Of a DNA stretch of 64,000 nt, positions 1,354 through 50,135 are shown one piece after another. Every line of letters begins with the position of its first letter. The stretch's first letter is position 1. The notes below the pieces were generated by a model. It saw only the letters and a list, made by a program, of their open reading frames with translations. It searched no databases and had not been told where the DNA came from. The DNA is from a virus. The stretch covers positions 1 to 64,000 of the IMG/VR virus record IMGVR_UViG_3300009506_000016; one strand, written 5' to 3'. The position numbers and the translations under genes were made by a program.

Positions 1354-4300
1354 ATGGGTGCGGCTGTTACTAATCAAAACACCTTCCGGTTCAGGGAAGA
1401 TGATGGTAATGAAACTGGTGCATCGTGGATTGATGCACAGGGGAGTAACATCAATCGCGGAACTGGAACGGCCAATAAGTTTCGCGTTCGCAATCTTGTT
1501 CAAGAAACAAATAACGGTGCGGCCAACGTTCCTTGGCCTCTGTGGGCAAGCTATAATGGCGGCTCTTATTTCGTTGTAACCACCACAAGCTCATACGTTC
1601 AATCTGTTGCGCAAGTGGAACAGTAACCGATGACACGCTTACTACTGCTCAACTCACATTTTCTGGATCGTTTGTTCAAGGGAGATTTGACAGCAACGGG
1701 GCGATGGAAAACAATACCATCCTCAAATCCCAATATTCGGAGATGGAGTATTGTGTTTTCATTGTTAACGATGATGTAAATAACGGCGACACTATTGACT
1801 TCCGTACATACGAGACAGTAACGGCACCCGCAGATTCATATACCGCAACTGGCAGAGTCACAGTAACAAAAGCCGCATCCAGCAATCTTACAGTAGACGA
1901 TGCCTACGTAACTACGCAAGTTGATCCAGTCTCAACAACGAAGTCAGATACGCTCGTTATCGCAGACGCATCGATAGAACCGAATGCAGATAACGTTATA
2001 ACCACCAAATCGGACACATTAGTAATCGCTGATGCCAGCGTTGAAACGCAAGTAGACGCTCCTACAATAACCGAGATTGGTGGTGCGGTTGACCTTACTG
2101 TTGACGATGCGTATGTGACTACTCAAGTGGATGCGGTTCAGACAACGAAGTCCGACACTCTTGTTGTCGATGATGTTTATGTAGAAACTCAAACTGATAA
2201 TATAACAATTACAAAGTCTGATACTTTATCTGTTGCAGATTTATATGCTACTACTCAAATGGACTCCCCAACCCTTATTGCTCCACAAGGGATAATAATT
2301 GAAATCCATCTTGAAGAGGATCTTTCGGAATTTACCAGTACTGTCACAGATGGGGGTGATTTATATTGGTCTGCTGATGCTGCACTCGCTGGTTCTTCTG
2401 GCGGCATGGCATGTTTTATTGATGATAACACGGAAATTTATGGCGTAAATAGCTTTACTGAAATATCCTCCGGTATTTGGCGCACTAGATTTTATCTTGA
2501 TCCTAATAGTATTGCACTCGAAAATTATAGAGGTGTAGGATTACAGCAATTTCGGTTGTCTGGAAGGCCCATAGCAACAATATATATCGGGAATCCTGGC
2601 GATGGGTCACATTCTATTTTTTCTGGTGTTTATGATGATAATTCGGTTTGGCAAAATACATCTTGGTACGCTATTTCGGATGAGGAACATTATGTCGAGG
2701 TTTTATTTGAGTCGGCTACTGGTGAAGATAGCAATGATGGTATCATAACAATATGGATTGATGGAGTCCAAAAGGGACAAAAAACTGGTCTGGATTTATA
2801 CACCTATGGCAAAATTGATACGTCCAGATTTGGTATTATGAATCCAGGATCATCAAATGGGACTGTCTATCTTGACGAACTAATCGTCAACGATGATGGC
2901 TCAGAGATTGGACCGGTTGGTGGAAGCGGAACAACATTAACCGTAGCCGATGCCTGTGTAACCACGCAAGTTGACGCCGTAAACACAACGAAATCTGACA
3001 CCCTGGCGATAGCGGATTCTTACGTGACAACGCAGATAGATGAATCGGCGGTAGCAGAGGTTGAGCCAAGTCACACAATTATTGAAATTCACCTAGAAGA
3101 AGATTTGAGCGAATTTACATCCACTGTTACAGATGGTGGAGATTTATATTGGTCAGCCGATGCCGCACTCGCTGGCACTTCGGGCGGCATGGCATGTTTA
3201 GTTGATGATACAAATGCCATTTATGGGGAAGCAGTTGTTACACCGGCCAACACCAGTGGAGTTTTACGCTGGCGTGTGTATCTTGATCCTAATTCCCTAA
3301 CAATGGCAGATGGGGATGTGTTCTATATTGCTGGTTTATATAATAGTAGCAGTAATGAGATTTGTGGATTCCAATTACGGTATTACACCGCCGGAGGTTA
3401 TCAAGTACGTGGATTTGTAACAAACGATTCCAATACTCAGACTGTAGTGAATGTATATATCACGGATGCTCCGCATTATATAGAAATGATGGTAACGAGG
3501 TCAGATGGCGGAGACAATGGCGCTTGGAGTTGGTGGATTGATGGAGATGCGCAGACCGGCGCTAGTAATCTTGATAATGATACATTTTTCGCAAATTTCT
3601 CATATATCAGAATCGGAGCAATTGACAAATTAGATACTGGAACGCACGACACATTTTATCTTGATGAATTGATCGTCAACGATGACGGCTCTGAGATTGG
3701 ACCGGTAAGCGGTGGAAATAACTTATCAGTTGATAATGCTTATGTAACTACTCAGGTAGATCCAGTATCTACTACAAAATCAGATACACTGATTGTATCA
3801 GACATATCCGTTGAAACTCAGATTGACAATGTAGCGGTCACGAAATCGGATACCATCTCCATTTCTGATTCAAGTGTTGATACACAGGTCGATCATGTAT
3901 CTACAACAAAGAGTGACACACTCGTTGTTTCTAATGTTTATGTAGAAACTTATGTGGATGCTGTAGAAATAAATAGTGCGCAATTCTTATCTGTTGATGA
4001 TGCTTATATTGAAACACAAGTTGACCAAATATCAATAAGCAAATCAGATACGCTAGTAGTTGCAAATACATATACGGATACGCAAGTTGATGAAGTATCA
4101 ATTACAAAATCCGATACGCTCGTTATCGCCGATGCCTATTCAACGACACAAGTAGACAGTCTAAATCTTTCTGGATCTACAACATTATCTGTCGATAATG
4201 CTTATGTAACAACACAATCTGATAATGTTGAAGTACAAAAGTCAAGCTCTCTATCTGTTGATAATGCTTATGTTGAAACACAAACAGATAATGTGACCGT

Positions 4301-11969: not shown

Positions 11970-12523
11970 GAACTGCTTATGAATTATCGGATTGGCAAGG
12001 TTATCTGACACATAACGAAATTGACGAAATACAGAAATGCGTTCGAGAGCTTTTCGTGCAATACCGGCCAATTGCGGTAAACATTGGCGCTGGCGGGGGA
12101 ACTTCTACAATTGCTATGCTTGAACAGGATTCAAGGATCGTTGTATTCTCTATCGACATTGCGGCGGCTGGACAGGAAACAGTGACGAATGAACATTTGA
12201 GACTTGATGAATGCGGACCCGAATATGTTGGGAGGGTGAAGCGCATTTGGGGTGATAGCAAGATGGTTGGCAAAAACTGGCCCGTAAAAGTTGATCTCGT
12301 TTTTGTGGATGGGGATCATACGCTTGAGGGATGTGCCGGTGATATTGAGGCATGGGCTGATCATATTCGCTCCGGTGGCTACATGCTTTTCCACGATTAC
12401 GGATCTCCAAACTGGCCCGGCGTTGCTCAGGCAGTTGATTCTATGATGGGCGTTTATGAAGAATTGGGCGCTGTTCAAAAAATAAAGCTAGTAGACTCTT
12501 TGATGGTGTATAAGATACTATGA
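11966..12523 (+). CDS. class I SAM-dependent methyltransferase (Methyltransf_24-like)
   Basis: NIGAGGGTS; DLVFVDGDH...GG.MLFHDY; ATGA overlap with the previous gene. Confidence 0.85.
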   Translation: MRTAYELSDWQGYLTHNEIDEIQKCVRELFVQYRPIAVNIGAGGGTSTIAMLEQDSRIVVFSIDIAAAGQETVTNEHLRLDECGPEYVGRVKRIWGDSKMVGKNWPVKVDLVFVDGDHTLEGCAGDIEAWADHIRSGGYMLFHDYGSPNWPGVAQAVDSMMGVYEELGAVQKIKLVDSLMVYKIL

Positions 12524-12858
12524 CCGGTACGGATGACAATCACGAAGCATTGAAATTATTTGCTACAAAATTGGGCGAGAGGATCGTTAAAAATTCAGAT
12601 GAAATACTGCGCTCTAACGGGCTTAATGAAACACGATTTTCTGTTGGCGTGCTTGTGAAACCGGCAGTATTTCAGATTGTTATTTCTTGTAATGAGTTTA
12701 TCTATAACGTTCCAGAGATGAACATCTTTGAGCATTTCAAAGGATCAAAGTGGGAAACCGAGATAACCGAATTCGTTGATAGTTATGCTCGATTTCTTGC
12801 ATGGGATTATCTCAAATATTGTGGCATAGAGGCTAAATTTGAAGAACAGAAAACTTAA
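12520..12858 (+). CDS. hypothetical protein
   Basis: 112 aa, translationally coupled (ATGA). Confidence 0.65.
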   Translation: MTGTDDNHEALKLFATKLGERIVKNSDEILRSNGLNETRFSVGVLVKPAVFQIVISCNEFIYNVPEMNIFEHFKGSKWETEITEFVDSYARFLAWDYLKYCGIEAKFEEQKT

Positions 12859-15817
12859 AGTATTCATGTTCCCAGGCAAGGGATCAATAGGCCAGCCAAA
12901 TGGTATTTCACGAGTAATAGAAAACTATTACAAGTACAGCCATCTTATTAATGTTGAATTTGTAGATACAGATAATAATGCAGATTTAAGAGTTGCTCAC
13001 GCTGGCATGAAAGATGGAGATTGTGATGTATCCATTCTTCATGGTATATATTTTACGGGTGATTATAGATCCCCAAAATATGAGCATAAAGTAAATAGGC
13101 AAATCGCCGAGTCAATTCACTCAGCATATTCGGTAACTGTTCCTACAAGTTGGGTGGCTGAAATTATTCAGAGAGATACGCATATCAATCCATTTGTCGT
13201 TCCTCATGGTATCGATGCAGAGTTATGGAAGCATGATTATCAGTTTGAACCCTATTTCTTATATAATAAGAACAGGGATGGATCAGACGTATGCGATAGT
13301 ACAGCGCTTGATAAACTTGCCGGTATGTCTCCTGATGTAAAATTTGTTTCTACTTTCTCGCGTGCTAACCACCCAAATATCCGGGTTACCGGTGTTATGT
13401 CACCTGATGATATGAAACCGTATATACAGAGGGCTGGCGGTTATTTGTCGCTTACAAAGGAAACATTCGGTATTGGGGTGTTGGAAGCGCTGGCGTCCGG
13501 TGTGCCGGTGTTAGGCTGGCGGCATGGCGGCAATGTTGACTTGATAAAACATGGCGTAAATGGCTATTTGGCAGAACCCGGAAATTATGATGATCTAATA
13601 GCCGGAATGCGCTATATTATTAAATATAGAAAAGTTTTATCATATAACGCGAGTATCTCGGCAAGAGAGTGGACTTGGGAAAATGCTCTAAATAAACTCA
13701 GAGTTGCTCTTGATGATGCTTACTCAAAGAAACATGAACCCGCAACAGTGAGTGTTATTGTTCCAGCTTATAATTATGGTGATAAGATTGGCCGCTGTCT
13801 TGATAGCATTGATGAGCAATCTTTTCGCCCCTCCGAAGTCATTGTGGTAGATGATGGGTCAGAAAAAGATCAAGCTAAAACTACCAAAAAGGTTTCAAAA
13901 GATCACGGCGCTTATTATTATTTCAAAAATAACGGTGGTGTAGCAACTGCTCGTAACTATGGTGGAATCGTATCACAATCAAAATATCTATGTTTTATAG
14001 ATGCTGATGACGAGATGGATTCTGAATTCTTGAATGTGTGCGTGCAAGCACTTGAAAACGACAAGTCTCTATACGTGGCATATACTGGACTGAAAGCTAT
14101 TCATCCAGATGGACGAGAGCAAGTATCTCAATGGCCCGGCGAATGGAATTTTGATGCTCAACTAAAACGAAAAAATCAAATTCCTACTTGTTGCGTAATG
14201 CGCAGAGAAGCCTTTGAAAGAACAGGCGGATATCGTCAGCGCTATGCACCTCATGGCGCTGGATCTGAGGACGCTGATCTTTGGACTCGCATTGGTGCAT
14301 TAGGAATGAAGGCAAAACAAGTAACCACTGATCCATTATTCCGTTATCATGTTGGGGAGGGACACACCAGCCAGTCAGGATACAGAGAAGTTGATTGGCT
14401 AGGATGGAACGGGTATTTAAAGTCTGGACTTCATCCATTTGCCAGCTATGCCACTCCGAATAATAAATTTGCGCATCTTGTATTTCAATATGATGAACCG
14501 ATGGTAAGTGTTATTATTCCAGTTGGTCCAGGACACGAGAATGTTATTGTAAATGCGCTTGATAGCATTGAGGGTCAGACTTATAAAAAGTGGGAAGTGA
14601 TTGTTGTATCTGACACGGTTAACAATATTGATCTTTCTCCTTGGCCTTTTGCCCGTATATTTCATACTGATAAACCCAAAAGTGGTCCGGGTGTGGCGCG
14701 TAACATAGGCGTAAAGAATGCACGCGGAAAGTTTGTTGTGTTCCTGGATGCTGATGATTGGCTTGCGATTGATGCTCTTGAAAAGATGCTCGTTCACTAC
14801 ACGCTTAATAGCGGAATTGTTTACAGTAATTACTTTGGAATATCATCGGCAGAACCTGATGATCTTAAGAAATATAAGACAAAGATCGTGGCCTACGATG
14901 AAAAAAAGAAAATGGCGCTTGCAAAACATGAAGCAAGCGAGTATGATTGTAAACGAGCGCAGATGCAACCAAGAGATCCGTTGTATCATTGGTGTCTTGT
15001 TACTTGTCTTATCCCTAAAGTTTGGCATGATGAAATCGGCGGGTTCGATGAAAACATGTCAAGTTGGGAAGATGTAGATTACCACTGGCGTATGGCGCGT
15101 ATGGGCAAATGCTACTCGCGTATTGAAGATACGTTAGTGTATTATAATTTCAATACCGGATATCGTAGAAATCTAGCGAGTCCAGAACAAAATCTTGATC
15201 ACGCCAAGTCGCTAATCGCGTACATGGCAGACAAATATAAGAAAGGTGATGAACCTATGGCATGTCGAACTTGCGGGAAAACGAATCCCGCCTCTGGTGT
15301 TGCTCCATCTTCTGTTACCGCAATGAGCGCTATGGCGGCAAAGAATGAGGATAATTCTTATGTGATGATTGTTTATAATCATCCTAATCGTGGAACCCAT
15401 CGAGTTATTGGTCCTTCTACTGGTACGGATTATGGCTATCGCGCCGGTGGTGAACACTTCCTTGTTCATGTGAATGATGTACAACTTATGCCAGCATTAT
15501 TTGTAAAACAGGCAATCAAAGTTGTTAACGCATCCATTCCAGTTGAGCAAGAAGCGCCAAAGAAACTTGAGGCTCCAAAAATGATCGATGGAACTCCTGT
15601 GATATCAAAAGATAAGCCGTTTGACGTGGGTGTTATTGCGGGTATCACTCCTGCGATTGCGAAGAAACTCATTGATGCTGGCGTTGACTCTCGTGATAAG
15701 TTTTTATCACTTACTAATGATTACTTGGTAGATATTGATGGCATTTCTAATACGCGTGCAAAAATTATCATGGGTGTGATCGATAAAATGAGACAGGAAG
15801 ATGCCAGTGACTCTTGA
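12839..15817 (+). CDS. multi-domain glycosyltransferase: GT4 + two GT2 domains + C-terminal CxxC and helix-hairpin-helix region
   Basis: ETFGIGVLEALASG (GT4); VSVIVPAYN..VDDGS..FIDADD and VSVIIPVG..FLDADD (GT2); IAGITPAIAKKL and IDGISNTRAK (HhH). Confidence 0.9.
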   Translation: MKNRKLKVFMFPGKGSIGQPNGISRVIENYYKYSHLINVEFVDTDNNADLRVAHAGMKDGDCDVSILHGIYFTGDYRSPKYEHKVNRQIAESIHSAYSVTVPTSWVAEIIQRDTHINPFVVPHGIDAELWKHDYQFEPYFLYNKNRDGSDVCDSTALDKLAGMSPDVKFVSTFSRANHPNIRVTGVMSPDDMKPYIQRAGGYLSLTKETFGIGVLEALASGVPVLGWRHGGNVDLIKHGVNGYLAEPGNYDDLIAGMRYIIKYRKVLSYNASISAREWTWENALNKLRVALDDAYSKKHEPATVSVIVPAYNYGDKIGRCLDSIDEQSFRPSEVIVVDDGSEKDQAKTTKKVSKDHGAYYYFKNNGGVATARNYGGIVSQSKYLCFIDADDEMDSEFLNVCVQALENDKSLYVAYTGLKAIHPDGREQVSQWPGEWNFDAQLKRKNQIPTCCVMRREAFERTGGYRQRYAPHGAGSEDADLWTRIGALGMKAKQVTTDPLFRYHVGEGHTSQSGYREVDWLGWNGYLKSGLHPFASYATPNNKFAHLVFQYDEPMVSVIIPVGPGHENVIVNALDSIEGQTYKKWEVIVVSDTVNNIDLSPWPFARIFHTDKPKSGPGVARNIGVKNARGKFVVFLDADDWLAIDALEKMLVHYTLNSGIVYSNYFGISSAEPDDLKKYKTKIVAYDEKKKMALAKHEASEYDCKRAQMQPRDPLYHWCLVTCLIPKVWHDEIGGFDENMSSWEDVDYHWRMARMGKCYSRIEDTLVYYNFNTGYRRNLASPEQNLDHAKSLIAYMADKYKKGDEPMACRTCGKTNPASGVAPSSVTAMSAMAAKNEDNSYVMIVYNHPNRGTHRVIGPSTGTDYGYRAGGEHFLVHVNDVQLMPALFVKQAIKVVNASIPVEQEAPKKLEAPKMIDGTPVISKDKPFDVGVIAGITPAIAKKLIDAGVDSRDKFLSLTNDYLVDIDGISNTRAKIIMGVIDKMRQEDASDS

Positions 15818-37972: not shown

Positions 37973-39592
37973 TTATTTGTATCCGATGAACTCGTTGATC
38001 AGTTGCGGTACGTTTCCATCAAACCCGGCCACGTCCAGAGCAAGCGGATCAGAAGTGTCACCAATCGTATACCCGGTGGGTGTCATTGACATGGTAACCA
38101 GATTGACATCATGTCTTACATGAGATCGATACTGGTTTAGAGCAACAAACGGATGAACCCAACCTGCCCAAGTTTCACTGTCTGTGATGCAAACAAATGC
38201 GTCAAAGTCACGGCCTTGTCTCTTTGCCCAAGAAAAAGCGAGTGATGCGTCTGTTCCACCAAATGACATGTGGCTCGTTATCGCCATAGCCTGATCAAGT
38301 TTCATTCCGGCGCTGATCCCGAGCGGCCTGATATTATCAGCGAAGCCGATAATCTCGTAGTTTGGCTCGGAGTTAGCAAGAACAAGTGCCATAGCCGCCG
38401 CTCCAAGGTTTGGAGTAAAACCAGCAATGCCATTGATCGATCCGTAGGTCATTGAGCCACTCACATCAAGCGCATAGCAGATATTCTTGTGTGTGGCCGG
38501 TGCGTTTTTGAATGCAGAGTAGAAAGTGTTCTCACATGCGTAAGAGATATCACGATCAACATTCCACCGATTTTGACCACGCGTATCTACGCCAGCGTTA
38601 TATTGCAATGATGCAATCAAAGCCTTGATAGGATGCAAGCGGTTTTTGTGCAACCACTCAACATCGTTGAGGCGGCTGATGATCAGATTCTTGGAATCGC
38701 GGTCTTTCAGAACACCATAACGAGTCATATTTGCGAGATTGCGGACCATTGCCTCAGCACCCATTTGGGGTAGTAGAGCGATCCACACGTCACGATCAGT
38801 CAGATATTCGGTTGGTACAATCTCTCTCGGTGCATTCGCTGTGCGAATCACATCGATGATACCTTCCTTATTGCCCCTGGCCGCATAATCTTTCATCACT
38901 TCTGCGGCTGTAATGATATCTGGCACAAGAAAAGTATTGTATTCCTTTCCCAATGACCACAACATTGCCGCTTGGTGCGCCGGTGATGCAAAGCTAAAAT
39001 CAACATGCGCAAGACGAATGACATCCTTCTGCGACCATCCCTCACGTTGTTGATATTTAGCCAACTGGTAAGCCAGCGAGTTAGGGCTACGATCAAGATA
39101 CCATTTGGAAACGGCCCGGCGCACAGCCCTTCCCCATCCGCGTTTTGCGTGCAAGAAACTTGCAAACGTGAACAGGTGAGTACCAGTACGAACAACCTTC
39201 GGCAACGCATTTAGAGCTAGCTTACGTGCGTATGCCATTCCGTTTGTGTAAGACGCGGCAACTGCAAGAGCAAAAATAGCAGGATCGTTACTTGCGGCGC
39301 GTCCATTGTCGCTCACATCAACAATCATATCAATGGTGCGCGTTGGATCTTCATTAAGACATCGAAGAATGTTGGTGTAATTCTCGAACGTCCGCTTTTT
39401 CTCGTTGGCGTAGTAGGTTGGTCCTTCTGTACCAAGGATCAAAAACCGTTCAAGTTGAGTAAACATGCCAGCATCAAACACATATCCGCCAGCGTTATTC
39501 ATAACTTGCTTTTTGCCAGGAACAGGCCGAGATTGAGGAATATTACCAACCTTGTTGCTTGTTCCAGCATTGATATAGGTTTTTCGTGCCAT
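37973..39592 (-). CDS. rsr: Ro60 / TROVE-domain RNA-binding protein (Rsr) with C-terminal vWA domain
   Basis: Start MARKTY after GGAGG. NNAGGYVF, LERFLILGTEG.TYY, VRTGTHLF.F, RGWGRAVRRAV..WY, KYQQREGWSQKD..RL.H, RNL..MT, LHP, DVSGSM, GGTDASL, TDSETW and GFD are hallmark Ro60 motifs. Confidence 0.96.
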   Translation of the reverse strand: MARKTYINAGTSNKVGNIPQSRPVPGKKQVMNNAGGYVFDAGMFTQLERFLILGTEGPTYYANEKKRTFENYTNILRCLNEDPTRTIDMIVDVSDNGRAASNDPAIFALAVAASYTNGMAYARKLALNALPKVVRTGTHLFTFASFLHAKRGWGRAVRRAVSKWYLDRSPNSLAYQLAKYQQREGWSQKDVIRLAHVDFSFASPAHQAAMLWSLGKEYNTFLVPDIITAAEVMKDYAARGNKEGIIDVIRTANAPREIVPTEYLTDRDVWIALLPQMGAEAMVRNLANMTRYGVLKDRDSKNLIISRLNDVEWLHKNRLHPIKALIASLQYNAGVDTRGQNRWNVDRDISYACENTFYSAFKNAPATHKNICYALDVSGSMTYGSINGIAGFTPNLGAAAMALVLANSEPNYEIIGFADNIRPLGISAGMKLDQAMAITSHMSFGGTDASLAFSWAKRQGRDFDAFVCITDSETWAGWVHPFVALNQYRSHVRHDVNLVTMSMTPTGYTIGDTSDPLALDVAGFDGNVPQLINEFIGYK

Positions 39593-39604
39593 TTCGTACC
39601 TCCA

Positions 39605-39743
39605 ACAGAAAGTATAGTCGTGCAAAACGGTTGGCGGGATTCGAACCCGCCTTTTGCCATTAACCGTTATGGAGCGGCTGGTTGCTCAACCGGTACAACC
39701 TGTTCTTCTCCATTCGATGTAATAACCGACAAACAATCGTATA
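39605..39743 (-). ncRNA. structured rsr leader / Y-like RNA with a tRNA T-arm
   Basis: GGCGGG-UUCGAAU-CCCGCC stacked on an AACGGUU/AACCGUU helix; 5' end UACGA...GUCGGUUAU matches the Y-like elements. Confidence 0.65.
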
Positions 39744-41175: not shown

Positions 41176-43353
41176 CTAATAATCAACTTTCACATCACGA
41201 ATTGCGAACGTGAAGTGTTTGTCATCAAGATCAACCTCAGCGCCATCACGGGTGTCAAGATCGGGGAACCATTGTTTGCACAGCAAGACAGCAAACCGTG
41301 TTCTCTGGATCTTATCACGCACATTTCTCAAATCATTCTTCACGCGATTGAGACTCGCCTTTGCATATTCCAGGGTCGATAGCGGATCTTTTGAGTTAGG
41401 CATATTGTTCTCAAATGATTTTATGACATCGGACATAAGTTGATTGGATGGTGTGAGTTTCTTTCCGTCAGCCATTTTTGACAACACGTCATCAATCTTT
41501 GGAGCGCTGGAATATCCCTTGATCTTTACCTCAAATTCCTTGGCGAAGTAGTGATCGATGCTTTCTTCCTTGTCTACCGGTGGTGAATATAAGCGATCAT
41601 GCTTAATCCCGTAGGTTTCAAGGAATTCGATCTGCTCGTTCGTGAATTCGCTCGTGACTTTTTCCATGATCCCGGTTGGATCTAATTCCTTGATCTTGTT
41701 GTTCAGGAATTTTTGCATGAACGTAAGCTCAAGCTCGTGATCCAGCCACCCACAATATTCGGTAGATGTTGGCGCAGTGGCAATCTTCTTGTTCACCAGA
41801 GGAACAGCACCTAAGTCAACAAGATAGATTGTATCTTCATCGTGTTCATCATAGTAGTTATCTGGTAGCATACCAGCATCGACTAACCGATGAAACGTGT
41901 CATAACTCATTGACACTGGAAGGGTGGGCGTGTTCAAGATGCTATCTTTGACCAGGGTGTAGTTGCGATATTGATGACACTGGAAATACTCTCTGAGGCC
42001 AACATGCACAGCATCAGGAAGATTAACATGTCCAGGAATTTTTGCAAGGATGGAAAGATTCAGGCGTTTTTGATTCCATGTCAGATGATTGAATGGACAG
42101 GCCGTAGTAGAGTCTGCAAAGAATTTTGGATATCCATCGCGTGTCTTTGTGGGTACGCCGGTGCGCTTGTAGTTGAACAACTCGTGGCGTGGATAGAAGT
42201 ATGCTTTGCTATCTGCCATAAGCAAGTCAATAGCATCAAGCAAGCAAAACGCATCATCGGCTGGAACAAAATCGGTATCTTGTCCCTCAATGAACCTGAA
42301 CGCCTCAGAATCAAGTGATAGCAACATGCTGTTTTGCGCATTGCCATATTCCTCATTTGTGAATGCGTTGTTCACTTCTTTGATCAATGCAACTTCGCCG
42401 ATAGATCCAAGCATCTCAATAGCAATGTCTGACTTTGCGGAAGAAACAAATGCGTATGCCAGGGCCACAGGAGCAACGTATGATTGCTCATACGTCATTG
42501 ACGAAACCGTATCATAATGAGTCAGATCGTGCATGTGATTGATATCAGCAAGGACATAGATGGTGTTAGCGTTCTCTGGAACGTATGTTACAGCATCCAT
42601 AGTGTTGAGTATCTCAACAGGATACTGCTGGACGTTGAAGCCATCGTATCCAACTACCATCAGAGGTTGCATAACTGGAAGTGGTACTGAAACGCGCAAC
42701 GCCTTCTCAGATCCAACAAATTGCTCCATGCTCGAATCAAACTCGGTAAGGTGGCTGGAATGGATAAGAGTCCCGCCGATATTCGCTGTCATCTGAGCCA
42801 TAAGCTCTTTATTATAGTAGTCACCATAACCAACCAGCATCACAGACGAAACTTTGTCGTTCAGCGCACGCATGGTATTGAGAATTTTTTGTACTTCCTG
42901 TTTGTAGTTACTTACAACCGGATATCCGTCCGTCATAAACATGAGCGATACGGTTCCAGGAAGTGCGGAAAGATTACCGATGATGTTATCATAGGTATCT
43001 GCCAGGATCTCAGAAAAGCATGTGAGGCCTACAACGCTTTTGTATTTCTGTAATGCACTTTTTACAGTATTTTGGAATGACGAATTAACGGAAAGGCCGA
43101 TAAAGATCCAGCCAAACTTCCCGTTTTCAGTTGAAAACCAACCGATTGATAAGGTATCTCCATCGCGGAGTTGCTTGGAACGCTCAACCATATCATCAAC
43201 CAATTGAGGCAATGTATAATACATTGATCCAGAACGGTCAAAGATCCAAACGTGATTTGTAGGATCAGGAACAGAAGCCTTTTCCTCAGAGCGATCCAAT
43301 TCGATAGCGAACAAGTTGTACTTATTCTTTACAGGGGCTACAGATACTTTCAT
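41176..43353 (-). CDS. large vWA-domain protein (725 aa)
   Basis: N-terminal MIDAS DRSGSM, GLT, MTDGY; C-terminal half unassigned. Confidence 0.8.
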   Translation of the reverse strand: MKVSVAPVKNKYNLFAIELDRSEEKASVPDPTNHVWIFDRSGSMYYTLPQLVDDMVERSKQLRDGDTLSIGWFSTENGKFGWIFIGLSVNSSFQNTVKSALQKYKSVVGLTCFSEILADTYDNIIGNLSALPGTVSLMFMTDGYPVVSNYKQEVQKILNTMRALNDKVSSVMLVGYGDYYNKELMAQMTANIGGTLIHSSHLTEFDSSMEQFVGSEKALRVSVPLPVMQPLMVVGYDGFNVQQYPVEILNTMDAVTYVPENANTIYVLADINHMHDLTHYDTVSSMTYEQSYVAPVALAYAFVSSAKSDIAIEMLGSIGEVALIKEVNNAFTNEEYGNAQNSMLLSLDSEAFRFIEGQDTDFVPADDAFCLLDAIDLLMADSKAYFYPRHELFNYKRTGVPTKTRDGYPKFFADSTTACPFNHLTWNQKRLNLSILAKIPGHVNLPDAVHVGLREYFQCHQYRNYTLVKDSILNTPTLPVSMSYDTFHRLVDAGMLPDNYYDEHDEDTIYLVDLGAVPLVNKKIATAPTSTEYCGWLDHELELTFMQKFLNNKIKELDPTGIMEKVTSEFTNEQIEFLETYGIKHDRLYSPPVDKEESIDHYFAKEFEVKIKGYSSAPKIDDVLSKMADGKKLTPSNQLMSDVIKSFENNMPNSKDPLSTLEYAKASLNRVKNDLRNVRDKIQRTRFAVLLCKQWFPDLDTRDGAEVDLDDKHFTFAIRDVKVDY

Positions 43354-43394
43354 TGTGTGTCCTTTCGAATCGAATACGAATTAGACTTACAACA

Positions 43395-43465
43395 TGGACC
43401 GTAAGAGATTCGAACTCTATCTTCTCGTTGCAACGGAGATGATCTGCCATTTGATCTAACGGCCC
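43395..43465 (-). tRNA. tRNA-Ala(UGC), atypical anticodon and T stems, no encoded CCA
   Basis: GGGCCGU/ACGGUCC acceptor stem with G3:U70 and A73, GAUC D-stem, UUCGAAU T-loop. Confidence 0.75.
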
Positions 43466-43474
43466 ATTTTATCT

Positions 43475-43828
43475 TTATGGAACAGGATAACTAACATCGG
43501 GAGCCGGGTACGGCTCTACAGGAGCGGGGTATCCGATATCTTGTGTTGGCCGAACAATTCTTCGTAGGAATAAAGGAATAGTAGCTTGAAGGTCTTCTTC
43601 GTGTTCTCCGCTTTCGTTTTCGTCATCTGTTGAGTTATCGGTTGTGTTAATAGCATTCATTTCAATGTTCTTTGGAACACGAGTTGGAGTCGAAAAAGAT
43701 ACTACGGCAGGATCATTGTTATCGATCATATAAGCCTTAGCTCTGTTTTTCATTATACCAAACATGATAAAAGCGAGAATGAATGATACAAATAGAATAA
43801 TTATCGTTTTTTGTTTTAGTGAGGTCAT
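43475..43828 (-). CDS. membrane-anchored Pro/Thr-rich protein with YPAP repeats
   Basis: Start MTSLKQK; transmembrane helix; C-terminal GYPAPVEPYPAPDVSYPVP. Confidence 0.7.
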   Translation of the reverse strand: MTSLKQKTIIILFVSFILAFIMFGIMKNRAKAYMIDNNDPAVVSFSTPTRVPKNIEMNAINTTDNSTDDENESGEHEEDLQATIPLFLRRIVRPTQDIGYPAPVEPYPAPDVSYPVP

Positions 43829-43850
43829 TGTTGCCAACCTTAAATAAGTG

Positions 43851-43887
43851 GCCCGGTGGGTAAGGAGGTGAAAAAAACCCACCGGGC
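43851..43887 (-). ncRNA. hairpin displaying the 16S anti-SD sequence UCACCUCCUUA
   Basis: Perfect 10-bp stem GCCCGGUGGG/CCCACCGGGC; loop UUUUUUUCACCUCCUUA. Confidence 0.55.
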
Positions 43888-43900
43888 GCTCAATATTGAA

Positions 43901-44038
43901 CACGGTAATGTGGTGAGAAACCGGTTTAGCTCTGGCCGGGATTCGAACCCTAGAGCGAACAAGTATTACTCGTCCAGCAACCACGCCACTAGCCATCATA
44001 GTCTGGTAGATAGATAACAGTCTCTCTTTCGTACCGCG
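43901..44038 (-). ncRNA. Y-RNA-like element Y6 (138 nt; T-loop, cloverleaf-like interior)
   Basis: CGCGGUA-C-G...UUACCGUG lower stem; GAGAGACUG/CGGUUUCUC upper stem; UUAUCU; GGG-UUCGAAU-CCC. Confidence 0.75.
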
Positions 44039-44051
44039 AAAGTCTATTTTC

Positions 44052-44130
44052 ATTCGGTAATAAGTTGCGCTCGATAAAAAACTTCTGTACTGAAGTTTAC
44101 CGAAGGTAACCGAAGCGCGGCGTACCGAAT
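44052..44130 (-). ncRNA. Y-RNA-like element Y5 (79 nt, minimal)
   Basis: AUUCGGUA-C-G...UUACCGAAU; upper stem GCGCUUCG/CGAGCGC; GUUACCU. Confidence 0.75.
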
Positions 44131-44150
44131 CTTTATTAGGTTGTTAAAAC

Positions 44151-44226
44151 AAGGTAATAAATTAGCGCTCGATTTATTAGTTTCGTTTCATATACAAAGT
44201 TTGGTTATCGAACACAAGCGTACCTT
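44151..44226 (-). ncRNA. Y-RNA-like element Y4 (76 nt, minimal)
   Basis: AAGGUA-C-G...UUACCUU; upper stem GUGUUCGAU/AUCGAGCGC. Confidence 0.72.
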
Positions 44227-44238
44227 ATTATCTGTCTC

Positions 44239-44335
44239 GTGGGTGATGCGCCTATCACCCACTTATTCCATTCCGCACCGCAACCAACTTGAAGGAGCTT
44301 GACCAAGGAGATCCCGGCGGCGCTCACCGGTGAGC
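44239..44335 (-). ncRNA. structured element with two CUCCUU-displaying loops plus flanking hairpins
   Basis: GCGCCGC/GCGGUGC encloses GAUC-UCCUU-GGUC and AGC-UCCUUCAA-GUU; GUGGGUGAU/AUCACCCAC hairpin at 44239-44262. Confidence 0.5.
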
Positions 44336-44350
44336 CTTGCTAAGTAATAA

Positions 44351-44481
44351 TCTGGTAATGTATTTGATCACCATGTTTAGCGTCTTAACCACTTAGACCA
44401 CACGGAGCCTCGGCTCACAGGTTGGGATTCGAACCCAAATATCTCTGCCCAAGTCAGATAACAGTGATCTTCCGTACCAGA
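44351..44481 (-). ncRNA. YrlA-like Y RNA Y3 (131 nt; permuted tRNA mimic)
   Basis: UCUGGUA-C-G...UUACCAGA; UUAUCU; T-arm UUGGG-UUCGAAU-CCCAA, then a closed acceptor-like hairpin GAGCC/GGCUC, then D-arm GUCU-AAGUGGUUA-AGAC. Confidence 0.85.
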
Positions 44482-44495
44482 AAGATTCAATAATA

Positions 44496-44639
44496 AAGTG
44501 GTAATAAAAGTAGGCTGGACATTATTTTTCCTCTGCCATTGAGCTACACACGGATCTTCTTTTTCCGCATGACGGGATTCGAACCCGCAACCTATTGTTG
44601 TTTATACAATTGAGATAACCCAACCAATCCGTACCACTT
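44496..44639 (-). ncRNA. YrlA-like Y RNA Y2 (144 nt; permuted tRNA mimic)
   Basis: AAGUGGUA-C-G...UUACCACUU; GUUAUCUCAAUUG; T-arm GCGGG-UUCGAAU-CCCGU, acceptor CAUGCGGA/UCCGUGUG closed by a loop, UA, D-arm GCUC-AAUGGCA-GAG. Confidence 0.85.
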
Positions 44640-44656
44640 AAGTTTTCAATGTTCTG

Positions 44657-44724
44657 GCGGTATTAAGATTGCAGTCGATTTAAGAGTCTGTATACTTGTA
44701 GATAACCGACTTGCTTCGTACCGC
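44657..44724 (-). ncRNA. Y-RNA-like element Y1 (68 nt, minimal)
   Basis: GCGGUA-C-GAA...AUACCGC; upper stem GCA.GUCGG/UCGACUGC; UUAUCU. Confidence 0.75.
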
Positions 44725-44734
44725 ATCATCATAG

Positions 44735-44798
44735 TCGCTTGTGCCGTTGGGTTTGACTTAAGGAGGTCCATAGAGTAGCTAGAACTCGGGACAAGCGA
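44735..44798 (-). ncRNA. structured element with an anti-SD loop (GAC-CUCCUUAA-GUC)
   Basis: UCGCUUGU/ACAAGCGA closing stem; first element after the promoter. Confidence 0.55.
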
Positions 44799-44833
44799 TG
44801 AACCGTTATTTGTTTTTGTTCTAGCATGTATAT

Positions 44834-44862
44834 ATTATACGACTATTCAGAATTATTGTCAA
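44834..44862 (-). promoter_or_regulatory. perfect consensus sigma70 promoter driving the ncRNA array
   Basis: TTGACA-17-TATAAT; predicted TSS near 44827. Confidence 0.88.
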
Positions 44863-46607: not shown

Positions 46608-46656
46608 GCGCCACCTATATTTTATTAGAAACTTCCCTATATAATATTATAACCTA

Positions 46657-46727
46657 AAGGATCAGATCGAGTCGAACGATCATTGACGGCTTCAAAGGCC
46701 GGTGTCCTACCATTAGACGATGATCCT
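46657..46727 (-). tRNA. tRNA-Gln(UUG), no encoded CCA
   Basis: AGGAUCA/UGAUCCU acceptor stem; CGGC-CUUUGAA-GCCG anticodon arm; GAUCG-UUCGACU-CGAUC T-arm. Confidence 0.88.
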
Positions 46728-46733
46728 TAAATT

Positions 46734-48334: not shown

Positions 48335-49705
48335 TCAGGATGCTTCTTCAACGTCAACTGCGTTTGGATCTTCCTTGACAATACCCTCAAGAACCTGGAA
48401 CGCATAGTTCTTCGCTTTGTAAGCACGAATTCCACTCGTGTTTTCTACGCGAATCACCACACCTTCCATCAAGTGACGTTTATCAAGAGTTGAACATCTA
48501 TTGTCCAGAAACTTTTCGAGAATAACATTCAGAACACTGCTAACGTATGATTGTTCTTCATTTACATGAATATAAATCATTCTTAGAACAGGAACATGTT
48601 TCAGAAATAGCTCAGAGCATCGTTTCATAGTTTGCAACCACGATAACTCTGTCTCAATTCCATCCTCGTTTTGCACAGTGATGCGATACACGTAAAAGTC
48701 AAATGCTGGATTCATGCCACCATTATCATTCACGGTATTGCATCCGTATGAGTAAACCATTGGCCTACTGCCAATAACATCAAAAGGAAACTTAACAAAC
48801 TTGTCACGTATTTCCTTTTGTAAATCTTTATCCTTGATTTTATCAATAGATTGAGAATTCATAATCGGAGATCCGAACGTATCGAACCCGACTATCTCGT
48901 AGTATATGGTTTCCCCTTTGCGAAGTCTCCCGATCATTGACTTGTGAATTTGCCAGCGATAATGTTCCCTTCCAAGTCCAGTGATATCTTCACGGTTGTT
49001 GCATATCGTGTTTCGAGTACCGGTCACATATTCATACTTTTCTGTGACCACCGGTGCAATAACCTCACGCTTCAATACACGGTTTACCAAACTCGCAATC
49101 ATTCCAAAGCGTTCATGCTGTGCTTTGACGAATCCTGTTCGTCCGCTTGTTCCATGAAGTTTCTCTGTAATGATGAAGAAAGATCCTGGTGGGATCGTGT
49201 CCATATAATACCGGATCTGCTCGGTATCGTAGTGCTTGTTGAGCATGTAATGATCCCTAACCTTTACGGGTTTGTCGGATCTCGATTGGGCTTTGCGGGT
49301 GGCCTCTGTCACATATTTTGTACATATTGGATTTCCGTTTAGCTCGTTGAACGTAAGTCCTTGTACAAGTTCTTTTGTACTACCGGTCCATTCGAACGCT
49401 GATATCTTAACGGCAAACCCTTCTGACTTCACGCCCCTGAACGGCTGGACCCTAACTCTCCTGGTATCCTCAAAGAAACCAGTAACGGTTGTGTCTGCAT
49501 TCTTGGTAGCATCCCTATAAAGATTGTTGTAGTGGCAAAACTCATGGGATAGCTGACCATCAGGCGGAAAGATAACAACAAGATCTCCGATATGGTAATC
49601 CTTACTAACAATGAAGTTTGCACCGTTGTATGGCAGAATCATAAGTCGATCAGCATTTGGGTGATCGAGCAATTGATGAACGGATATGACGTGTGCGTTA
49701 TACAT
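48335..49705 (-). CDS. ATP-dependent RNA ligase (Rnl2-like / DRB0094 family) with N-terminal OB-like domain
   Basis: HPNADRL, R.V....FRGVKSEG; nucleotidyltransferase motifs TEKLHGTS (I), YYEIVG (III), FYVYRI (IIIa), EGVVIR (IV), KAKN (V). Confidence 0.88.
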   Translation of the reverse strand: MYNAHVISVHQLLDHPNADRLMILPYNGANFIVSKDYHIGDLVVIFPPDGQLSHEFCHYNNLYRDATKNADTTVTGFFEDTRRVRVQPFRGVKSEGFAVKISAFEWTGSTKELVQGLTFNELNGNPICTKYVTEATRKAQSRSDKPVKVRDHYMLNKHYDTEQIRYYMDTIPPGSFFIITEKLHGTSGRTGFVKAQHERFGMIASLVNRVLKREVIAPVVTEKYEYVTGTRNTICNNREDITGLGREHYRWQIHKSMIGRLRKGETIYYEIVGFDTFGSPIMNSQSIDKIKDKDLQKEIRDKFVKFPFDVIGSRPMVYSYGCNTVNDNGGMNPAFDFYVYRITVQNEDGIETELSWLQTMKRCSELFLKHVPVLRMIYIHVNEEQSYVSSVLNVILEKFLDNRCSTLDKRHLMEGVVIRVENTSGIRAYKAKNYAFQVLEGIVKEDPNAVDVEEAS

Positions 49706-50135
49706 CCTCGTTATCTCCTTTTTCTCCAACAGTACCAAGATCAACGGTTTGTCCTGGGGGTGCATACTCAACTCCGTAGTCCTCAAGAAGTTGTTGAGCA
49801 TCATGGAATTCATTTAGAGTAGTTGTAAACGCAACTTTGAATGCCACCATCATTTCCTCAAGGCTCGTTTGTTGATGGACGCATTGGCTTGCGAGATACA
49901 TGATCAATGGTCCGCCGCGTGCTAGTAGATCGGCCCACACCATCTCTCGCTCTACAGTGTCATCGAATACGAATTCGAGAAGTATTGTTTGGTCAAGAAA
50001 TTCAACCGACCAAACTCGCTGAGGTTCCCCGTTAGAATCAATCCTGTCACTTCGGGTGACAATTCCTTCGCCCTCAGTGACAGGAAGATTACTAACTATT
50101 CTCTCAGCTAATTTTAAACTAGCTGGATCAATCAT
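49698..50135 (-). CDS. hypothetical protein
   Basis: 145 aa, acidic. Confidence 0.65.
   Translation of the reverse strand: MIDPASLKLAERIVSNLPVTEGEGIVTRSDRIDSNGEPQRVWSVEFLDQTILLEFVFDDTVEREMVWADLLARGGPLIMYLASQCVHQQTSLEEMMVAFKVAFTTTLNEFHDAQQLLEDYGVEYAPPGQTVDLGTVGEKGDNEDV

Follow-up and report, generated by a model that had tools for sequence, protein, structure and literature searches.

Ro60 and Y RNAs are conserved from bacteria to humans, and the published bacterial and phage loci carry one or two Y RNAs, with up to four in Deinococcus. Both phage Ro60 and phage Y RNAs are already known. Here we describe a viral locus in which six units of Y RNA type (Y1 to Y6; minus strand, 43901-44724) stand in tandem behind a sigma70-type promoter, on the same strand as a canonical Ro60 gene, and which probably forms one transcription unit encoding six Y RNA homologues for the phage Ro60. 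The stretch analysed, hereafter the window, comprises the first 64 kb of the IMG/VR virus record IMGVR_UViG_3300009506_000016, which is ~77.5-77.6 kb long and estimated to be 68% complete; the full stretch was found in a marine-sediment metagenome run, probably its source.

Among the described systems, the YrlA and YrlB RNAs that accompany Rsr/Ro60 (RF02553; PMC4201824) share with the window a position on the Ro60 strand a few kb from the gene and a CG(A/G)A-type motif in the 5'/3' stem. YrlA has been recognised by a location at most 4 kb from Ro60 on the same strand, in a study that reported phage Y RNAs/Ro60 in 22 phages and mentions neither UUAUC nor stem-bulge RNAs (Chen 2014, PMC4201824). 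As in YrlA, Y2 and Y3 possess a T arm, an acceptor-like stem-loop and a D arm in YrlA order, and Y6 carries a T arm only, as YrlB and Yrn1 do. Unlike the YrlA/YrlB loci with their one or two RNAs, the window holds six promoter-driven units, three of them without a tRNA-like part; its motif is GGUACG and not the strict GNCGAAN0-1G, and a UUAUC motif is present in its units.

UUAUC is the conserved loop start in stem-bulge and vertebrate Y RNAs (PMC4450293, PMC4726728), and the nematode stem-bulge and vertebrate Y RNAs (RF01656, RF00019) also have in common with the window units a GGUNCG lower helix, a bulge, an upper stem of ~9 bp and a 10-nt spacing. They differ in the 3' strand, which is AUUACC in the window and UUGACC in the eukaryotic RNAs, and in being single Pol III genes rather than a polycistron under a bacterial promoter; it is not obvious what the role of UUAUC in eukaryotic replication would mean for phage units. 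In Thermus phage phiLo, Ro60 has been shown to bind a pair of neighbouring Yrl RNAs and to enter a ternary complex with PNPase (PDB 9KOP, 9L5Y; PMC12135203). Like the window, phiLo combines a phage Ro60 with phage-encoded Y-like RNAs upstream, and it provides the mechanism assumed here for the array, although its two RNAs are adjacent to the gene and its Ro60 is distant from that of the window (E=6.5e-7). In the Rsr/Yrn1/PNPase complex of Deinococcus radiodurans (RYPER), the Y RNA serves as tether and gate; the Ro60 of this complex is close to that of the window (2NVO, 3e-95) and Yrn1 has a T arm as in Y6, but the system is cellular and stress-induced, with four loosely related small RNAs in place of a uniform array.

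Layout and common scaffold of the six units

An earlier note on this DNA had proposed six minus-strand units, and all six were found exactly where it placed them. Y1 (44657-44724, 68 nt; GGUACGAAG...GUUAUCU...AAUACC), Y4 (44151-44226, 76 nt) and Y5 (44052-44130, 79 nt) are minimal stem-bulge types of 68-79 nt without any tRNA-like part; the helix of Y4 can be extended to 44148-44229, and Y5 is a paralogue of Y4 with a common upper stem. The tRNA-like YrlA domain is confined to Y2 (44496-44639, 144 nt), which has a V stem, T arm, acceptor-like stem-loop and D arm, and Y3 (44351-44481, 131 nt), whose T arm, acceptor-like stem and D arm belong to a five-helix covarying consensus; both are YrlA-like, with the tRNA-like parts placed in the apical loop. 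Y6 (43901-44038, 138 nt) is a long unit with a T arm and neither acceptor-like stem nor D arm. The interiors, which had been described as unrelated, are thus related in Y2, Y3 and Y6 through a common tRNA T arm and in Y4 and Y5 through paralogy. In the source sample, a 175-nt contig is ~92% identical to 44437-44593 across the Y3/Y2 junction, which indicates that the sample also contains a relative of this phage whose units stand in the same order.

The promoter (44834-44862, minus strand; TTGACA-17-TATAAT) agrees with the consensus at 12/12 positions and predicts a transcription start near 44827. The perfect match claimed earlier is confirmed, but the promoter is not directly upstream of the array: a 109-nt leader (44725-44833) precedes Y1, containing an imperfect 12-nt hairpin (44798-44787 with 44746-44735) whose loop carries ACCUCCUUA (44767-44759). 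A leader pseudoknot was considered on the basis of an 8-nt complement and is not claimed, about two such complements being expected by chance in the region. Four linkers between units are short (13-20 nt) and rich in A+U (71-86%), as had been noted, whereas Y3 and Y4 are separated by a structured spacer of 124 nt (44227-44350) that lacks the Y scaffold and forms three hairpins, one of them with a perfect 9-bp stem (44262-44254 with 44247-44239), with CUCCUU at 44310 and 44297. The array ends in a perfect 11-bp hairpin (43851-43887, minus strand) with a 15-nt loop (U6, then CACCUCCUU), a possible terminator or 3' protective structure that a terminator scan did not call because its loop is too long. 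The sequence ACCUCCUU, corresponding to the anti-Shine-Dalgarno 3' end of 16S rRNA, has only two copies in the 77.5-kb record (44759-44767 and 43861-43870, minus strand), and both lie in the array transcript, one in the loop of the leader hairpin and the other in that of the end hairpin; the motif is not conserved in related arrays.

The six units share one scaffold. Each begins with 2-5 variable bases followed by GGUACG, a gap of 10 nt (11 in Y6) and a UUAUC-type motif, which reads GUUAUCU in Y1, Y2, Y3 and Y6, AUAACC in Y4 and GUUACC in Y5, in agreement with the earlier description of UUAUCU in four units and variants elsewhere. Each ends with AUUACC (AAUACC in Y1) and bases complementary to its own 5' flank, so that the co-variation of the flanks previously listed is seen in all six, with cognate outer extensions of 2, 4, 3, 5, 4 and 3 bp from Y1 to Y6. 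For the pattern GGTACG-N10-RTWAYC, shuffled sequence predicts 0.04 occurrences and the window contains five; a version with a flexible gap (8-13 nt) occurs six times in the 77.5-kb record, always within the array. When the interiors are removed, one common fold is obtained for 6/6 units, in which a 6-8-bp closing helix leads through an asymmetric internal loop into an upper stem of 8-9 bp, and whole units fold in the same way.

A test for contiguous stems with Watson-Crick pairs only proved too blunt, and duplex energies were used in its place. The upper stems reach -10.5 to -12.9 kcal/mol with their cognate strands and mostly -1 to -7 kcal/mol with non-cognate ones, the exception being Y4 against Y5, which have a common stem sequence. 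The earlier description of an upper helix of about 7-9 bp that differs between units stands in length and, for the most part, in sequence, but not for the Y4/Y5 pair. As in the bulged terminal stem of Y RNAs, whose 5' strand is of the GGUCCGA type, GGUACG(R) lies within the 6-8-bp closing helix and is followed by an unpaired C in 6/6 units. That this C is the single unpaired base, as first suggested, is one possible reading in 5/6 units; it needs an A-U pair, the bulged C and a lone G.U, and the minimum-energy fold has an internal loop instead.

Covariation supports the closing helix and the upper stem in both the short and the long units of the wider family. For twelve short units from outside the window, RNAalifold returns these two helices with compensatory changes at 12/15 pairs; under the supplied structure 87.1% of cells pair, compared with 67.4% after shuffling (0/500 shuffles as high) and 34-46% when the partners are slid. 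Y2, Y3 and Y6, taken together with seven other long units, yield five helices, namely the closing helix, the upper stem, a T arm, an 8-bp acceptor-like stem and a D arm, the last two being absent from Y6; in this set of ten, 92.4% of cells pair as against 64.9% after shuffling, with 27/32 pairs compensatory. Where units differed in length, MAFFT placed the 3' strands wrongly, and these alignments were left out of the pair counts. Across 42 distinct family units the 3' strand reads U(G/U)ACC, a G.U pair occupies the next position in 36/42, and core-to-core lengths are bimodal (52-76 and 120-143 nt); the identity of the bulge follows the 3' strand, a G leaving the A of GGUACG unpaired and a U, as in the six window units, leaving the C.

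A short constant motif present six times within 830 bp might also be expected of DNA-level repeats, such as protein-binding iterons or recombination sites, that are not RNA genes at all. Such an origin is scarcely credible here: compensatory changes keep RNA helices of differing sequence in every unit, G.U pairs render the structure strand-specific, and a promoter and a hairpin bound the array.

Relatives and their linkage to Ro60

The presumed protein partner of the array is a Ro60 orthologue encoded at 37973-39625 (minus strand), with a TROVE ring (2e-34) and a vWA domain (vWA_Ro60, 1.9e-45), and its structure matches include D. radiodurans Rsr (2NVO, 3e-95), the Ro60 entry 9NEN (1e-86), Xenopus Ro60 (1YVP, 3e-84) and, far behind, phiLo Ro60 (6.5e-7). 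The Ro60 gene that had been placed about 4 kb from the array is thus canonical and lies downstream on the same strand, the nearest unit being 4.28 kb from its start (43901 vs 39625) and the farthest 5.1 kb.

Relatives were collected by two routes. The protein route yielded 16 IMG/VR loci encoding Ro60 at 35-41% identity, among which the strict motif occurs in one only (L017), as three modules directly upstream of Ro60. The RNA route used the pattern GGTACG-N10/11-GTTATC-N18-48-GGTTCRAWTCC, which joins the 5' module to a T arm, and matched 4 IMG/VR, 23 metagenome and 3 species-genome loci, the last from 185,579 genomes searched; one of the genome matches is a Chloroflexi-binned contig of 8.8 kb with two modules and a Ro60 at 43% identity. 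A first, degenerate pattern gave mostly chance matches in IMG/VR. Within the few kb fetched around each match, a Ro60 gene is present in 11/26 of the viral and metagenome loci.

Model R2, built from the twelve short units from outside the window, made 44 matches over 37 loci, and in the IMG/VR Ro60 loci of the protein route 9/9 matches share the strand of Ro60 and precede it by no more than ~800 nt. In cultured phages, matches stand just upstream of Ro, namely a short unit of 38.4 bits in Streptomyces phage BoomerJR (L074, 3421-3610, plus strand) and one of 17.8 bits in Mycobacterium phage Sebata (L073, 3695-3904, plus strand); the GenBank records of both phages annotate no RNA at these units, which represent culturable systems. 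The co-occurrence with TROVE genes on which the earlier note had staked its proposal was accordingly found, the module standing beside Ro60 in many unrelated loci, with about 20 independent ones from metagenomes and phages. No gene except Ro60 is common to the window and the related loci, and Ro60 and the Y modules therefore behave as a self-contained module.

Most loci contain two to seven modules, with three in L053, four in L056, five in L058, six in L062 and L063, and seven in L068. The closest architecture is that of L058, in which a 12/12 promoter, five tandem units alternating between short and long, and a strong terminator follow directly after Ro60; in L053 a 12/12 promoter lies ~30 nt ahead of the first of three units, and Ro60 follows them. 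In a 143-kb phage (G001), at least six modules are scattered in a cluster of 30 tRNAs around Ro60. The Y/tRNA genes of this phage are interspersed with HNH-like CxxC/H open reading frames (ORFs) at 12288-12752 and 14235-14939 of L041 (minus strand), which probably encode homing endonucleases.

Some relatives are circular permutations in which the 3' strand is followed by a loop of 4-6 nt and then by the 5' strand, giving a capped Ro-type hairpin such as UUGACCG-GCAA-CGGUACG. This hairpin, together with the UUAUC stem, replaces the anticodon arm of a tRNA-shaped RNA of ~125 nt, and Rfam calls these RNAs tRNAs; permuted units of this kind lie at 12090-12240, 13567-13694 and 13965-14092 of L041 (minus strand), at 878-1007 of L062 and at 3027-3150 and 4664-4919 of L068.

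The occurrence of Y modules inside tRNA clusters and the Rfam tRNA calls in relatives, the T arms of Y2, Y3 and Y6, the D arms of Y2 and Y3, and the tRNA genes that flank the locus could all be accommodated by a decayed or rearranged phage tRNA cluster, composed of pseudo-tRNAs and fragments without a function of their own. This origin is nevertheless very unlikely, given that three units have no tRNA part at all, that the conserved, covarying part is a scaffold foreign to tRNA, that the T arm, acceptor-like stem and D arm follow the permuted order of YrlA and not that of tRNA, and that a perfect promoter has been kept in three independent arrays.

A search of the window with Rfam Y_RNA, YrlA and stem-bulge models had also been proposed. 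At gathering scores, Rfam finds two tRNAs only in the window, and no threshold was reached in the six units, with a partial YrlA match on Y2 as the closest approach (21.9 bits; model positions 25-83, spanning the T arm, acceptor-like stem and D arm). As a control, the YrlA of mycobacteriophage Sebata beside Ro scores 37.4 bits against the cut-off of 69, so the Rfam YrlA threshold is too strict for phage members. At the level of motifs, CGAA(N)G of the YrlA motif GNCGAAN0-1G is present in Y1 (UACGAAG) and Y6 (UACGAAAG), with the first G displaced by one, and the corresponding 5'-strand position reads CGGA in Y2 and Y3 and CGC in Y4 and Y5. RF01656, the Rfam model of ceN72-3 and ceN74-2, nematode stem-bulge RNAs that are Y RNA homologues, has a consensus with 10-nt spacing between GGUCCG and GUUAUC and a UUGACC 3' strand, as in the related phage units. 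Its gathering score is passed by relatives in L056 (718-782, 39.8) and L068 (5002-5067, 38.6), and nearly so by a further unit of L068 (4925-4994). The window units themselves show the stem-bulge layout of lower stem, bulge, upper stem of ~9 bp and loop opening with UUAUC, at the spacing of the RF01656 consensus; UUAUC is exact in Y1, Y2, Y3 and Y6 and replaced by UAACC in Y4 and UUACC in Y5.

Over both strands of the 64-kb window, R2 matches the array only, recovering Y6 (24.5 bits, E=4e-5, identical ends), Y1 (18.9 bits, E=0.002), Y5 (13.8 bits, E=0.09) and a fragment of Y3. A second model, R1, built from Y1, Y4 and Y5, found Y2 (26.5 bits) and neither Y3 nor Y6; with filters off, it did not span the long units, and it was dropped because it was too tied to the stem sequence of Y4/Y5. 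Neither Y4 nor Y5 has an Rfam match at relaxed thresholds, blastn of the array against GenBank phages gave no match, and the exact 24-nt start of Y6 was not found in IMG/VR.

Several of these results weigh against an assignment of the six units to the Y RNAs. Neither RF00019 nor RF01656 (gathering score 38) has a match in the window units even at E<=10; YrlA (RF02553) matches Y2 far below its cut-off and the other units not at all; and R2 at E<0.01 recovers Y6 and Y1 alone. The 3' strand is AUUACC or AAUACC where UUGACC is commoner, and Y1 lacks the G.U pair. Some of the family-wide figures are inflated by the retention of units only if an upper stem was detectable, a selection that was not applied to the six window units. 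Finally, at least five genes and a tRNA lie between array and Ro60, whereas most relatives are adjacent to the gene.

The units could instead be structured RNAs independent of Ro60, for example decoys or sponges for a host nuclease, a defence sensor or a tRNA-binding enzyme, with no more in common with Y RNAs than a stem-loop design of ancient origin; an array with its own promoter and end hairpin 4.3 kb from Ro60, the want of any other gene common to the Ro60-linked loci, and the anti-Shine-Dalgarno-like sequences in the array transcript, which hint at decoy functions, would be compatible with such a role. It is improbable, however, in that Ro60 is the sole constant neighbour of the module across unrelated loci and the most conserved part of the units is the strand contacted by Ro60 in solved complexes (Chen 2014, PMC4201824, citing Stein 2005). 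The proposal that the array is a polycistron of Y-RNA-type units with a constant scaffold and variable interiors is, on balance, supported by the Ro60 co-occurrence, the covariation, the RF01656 matches of relatives and the YrlA layout.

Proposed mechanism and significance

The steps by which the six Y RNA homologues would act are modelled on RYPER in Deinococcus, YrlA and phiLo (PMC4201824, PMC12135203). The strong sigma70 promoter would drive a single precursor, and host RNases may cut it at the single-stranded linkers, which are rich in A+U, and shorten the products as far as the closing helices. Each mature RNA would then dock through its 5' strand GGUACG(R) and bulged closing helix on the outer surface of the Ro60 ring, leaving the variable inner domain to tether the ring to a differing partner or to gate its cavity. 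The hairpin types might recruit exonucleases of the PNPase type and the tRNA-like types enzymes that handle tRNA, and the outcome would be several specificities for one Ro60 during infection. Processing into separate RNAs, Ro60 binding and a resulting repertoire of RNA adaptors or decoys, all put forward earlier, are predictions from sequence and analogy.

The window thus couples a canonical phage Ro60 to a promoter-driven array of six Y RNAs, and arrays of three to seven units recur in uncultured phages. As regards the earlier impression that a phage array of such size and diversity was undescribed, the array is not unique in size, with five, six and seven units in related loci, and no published description was found. 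More specifically, in a literature of which the reviews were only partly covered, we met with no account of an array of five to seven units driven by a promoter, of phage Y RNAs bearing the stem-bulge signature or of Y RNAs in the permuted tRNA shape. Three designs are combined on one docking stem in these arrays (minimal, with a tRNA-like insert, and permuted tRNA-shaped), and they supply ready-made RNAs of the "same handle, different cargo" kind, from which the partner recruited by each cargo could be worked out.

Prokaryotic Y RNAs have been viewed as not homologous to eukaryotic ones (PMC4726728), and the metazoan/nematode signature of the phage modules (GGUNCG, 10-nt spacing, UUAUC and UUGACC) bears on this view. 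A Ro60-like protein of phage Bas63 has been reported to counter the ppl defence system (PMC11482910), and the arrays may therefore belong to phage counter-defence or to the takeover of host RNA metabolism.

Flanking genes and a possible circular Y6

Between the array and Ro60 lie a 117-aa ORF, tRNA-Ala(UGC) (43394-43466, minus strand), a 725-aa protein (41176-43353, minus strand) and small ORFs. The 725-aa protein matches phrog_2426, whose function is not known (E=6.5e-132); its identification as a vWA protein was not confirmed, there being no Pfam match. Upstream on the same strand follow a DUF5131 protein, tRNA-Gln (46656-46728), which together with tRNA-Ala brackets the locus, and an ATP-dependent RNA ligase of 492 aa (48335-49813, minus strand; PF09414, 3.4e-11; phrog_968, 1e-54) that lies 3.5 kb upstream of the array. 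The ligase has an N-terminal extension of ~200 aa and no sequence relative in the PDB, and no polynucleotide kinase was seen among the window ORFs tested. It is a candidate sealer of processed Y RNA ends; PF09414 is present in just 2/5 other Ro60/Y phage records, and no firm linkage of the ligase follows.

Among the sequencing runs, none listed as RNA contains the stretch, and two (X2 and X3) are uncertain as to RNA or DNA; parts left uncovered carry no meaning. Run X2, a sediment sample from another study that is labelled metatranscriptomic and rated "RNA? probably DNA", contains a single 173-nt contig identical to 43898-44040, with its first 30 nt repeated at the end so that 44040 is joined to 43898. 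This is one contig of low depth, nothing else of the 1.7-kb locus is present in the run, and contigs cannot show RNA ends. Since 173 = 143 + 30 (with 31-mers), the contig corresponds to a closed 143-nt cycle of Y6, and since phage DNA at that depth should also cover the flanks, it is most simply read as a circular or multimeric form of Y6.

It is conceivable, though doubtful, that the ends of excised Y RNAs are ligated to give circles, with the ATP-dependent RNA ligase upstream of the array as a plausible agent and host RtcB as another possible one. A circle would have no ends for exonucleases to attack, and its Ro60-docking helix would be capped by a short loop, which for the Y6 joint would be UUCUU. 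The literature search brought up no paper on Y RNAs in circular form. If circles do form, they would mirror at the RNA level the permuted Y genes of related phages, which are loop-capped and tRNA-shaped, and they would help to explain why Ro60/Y RNA genes have long been noted in linkage with RNA ligases.

Mechanically called ORFs at 43475-44053 (minus strand), 43856-44017 and 44141-44302 (both plus strand) overlap the RNA units and are probably spurious, and the start of the 192-aa ORF is most likely the ATG at 43828, past the end hairpin.

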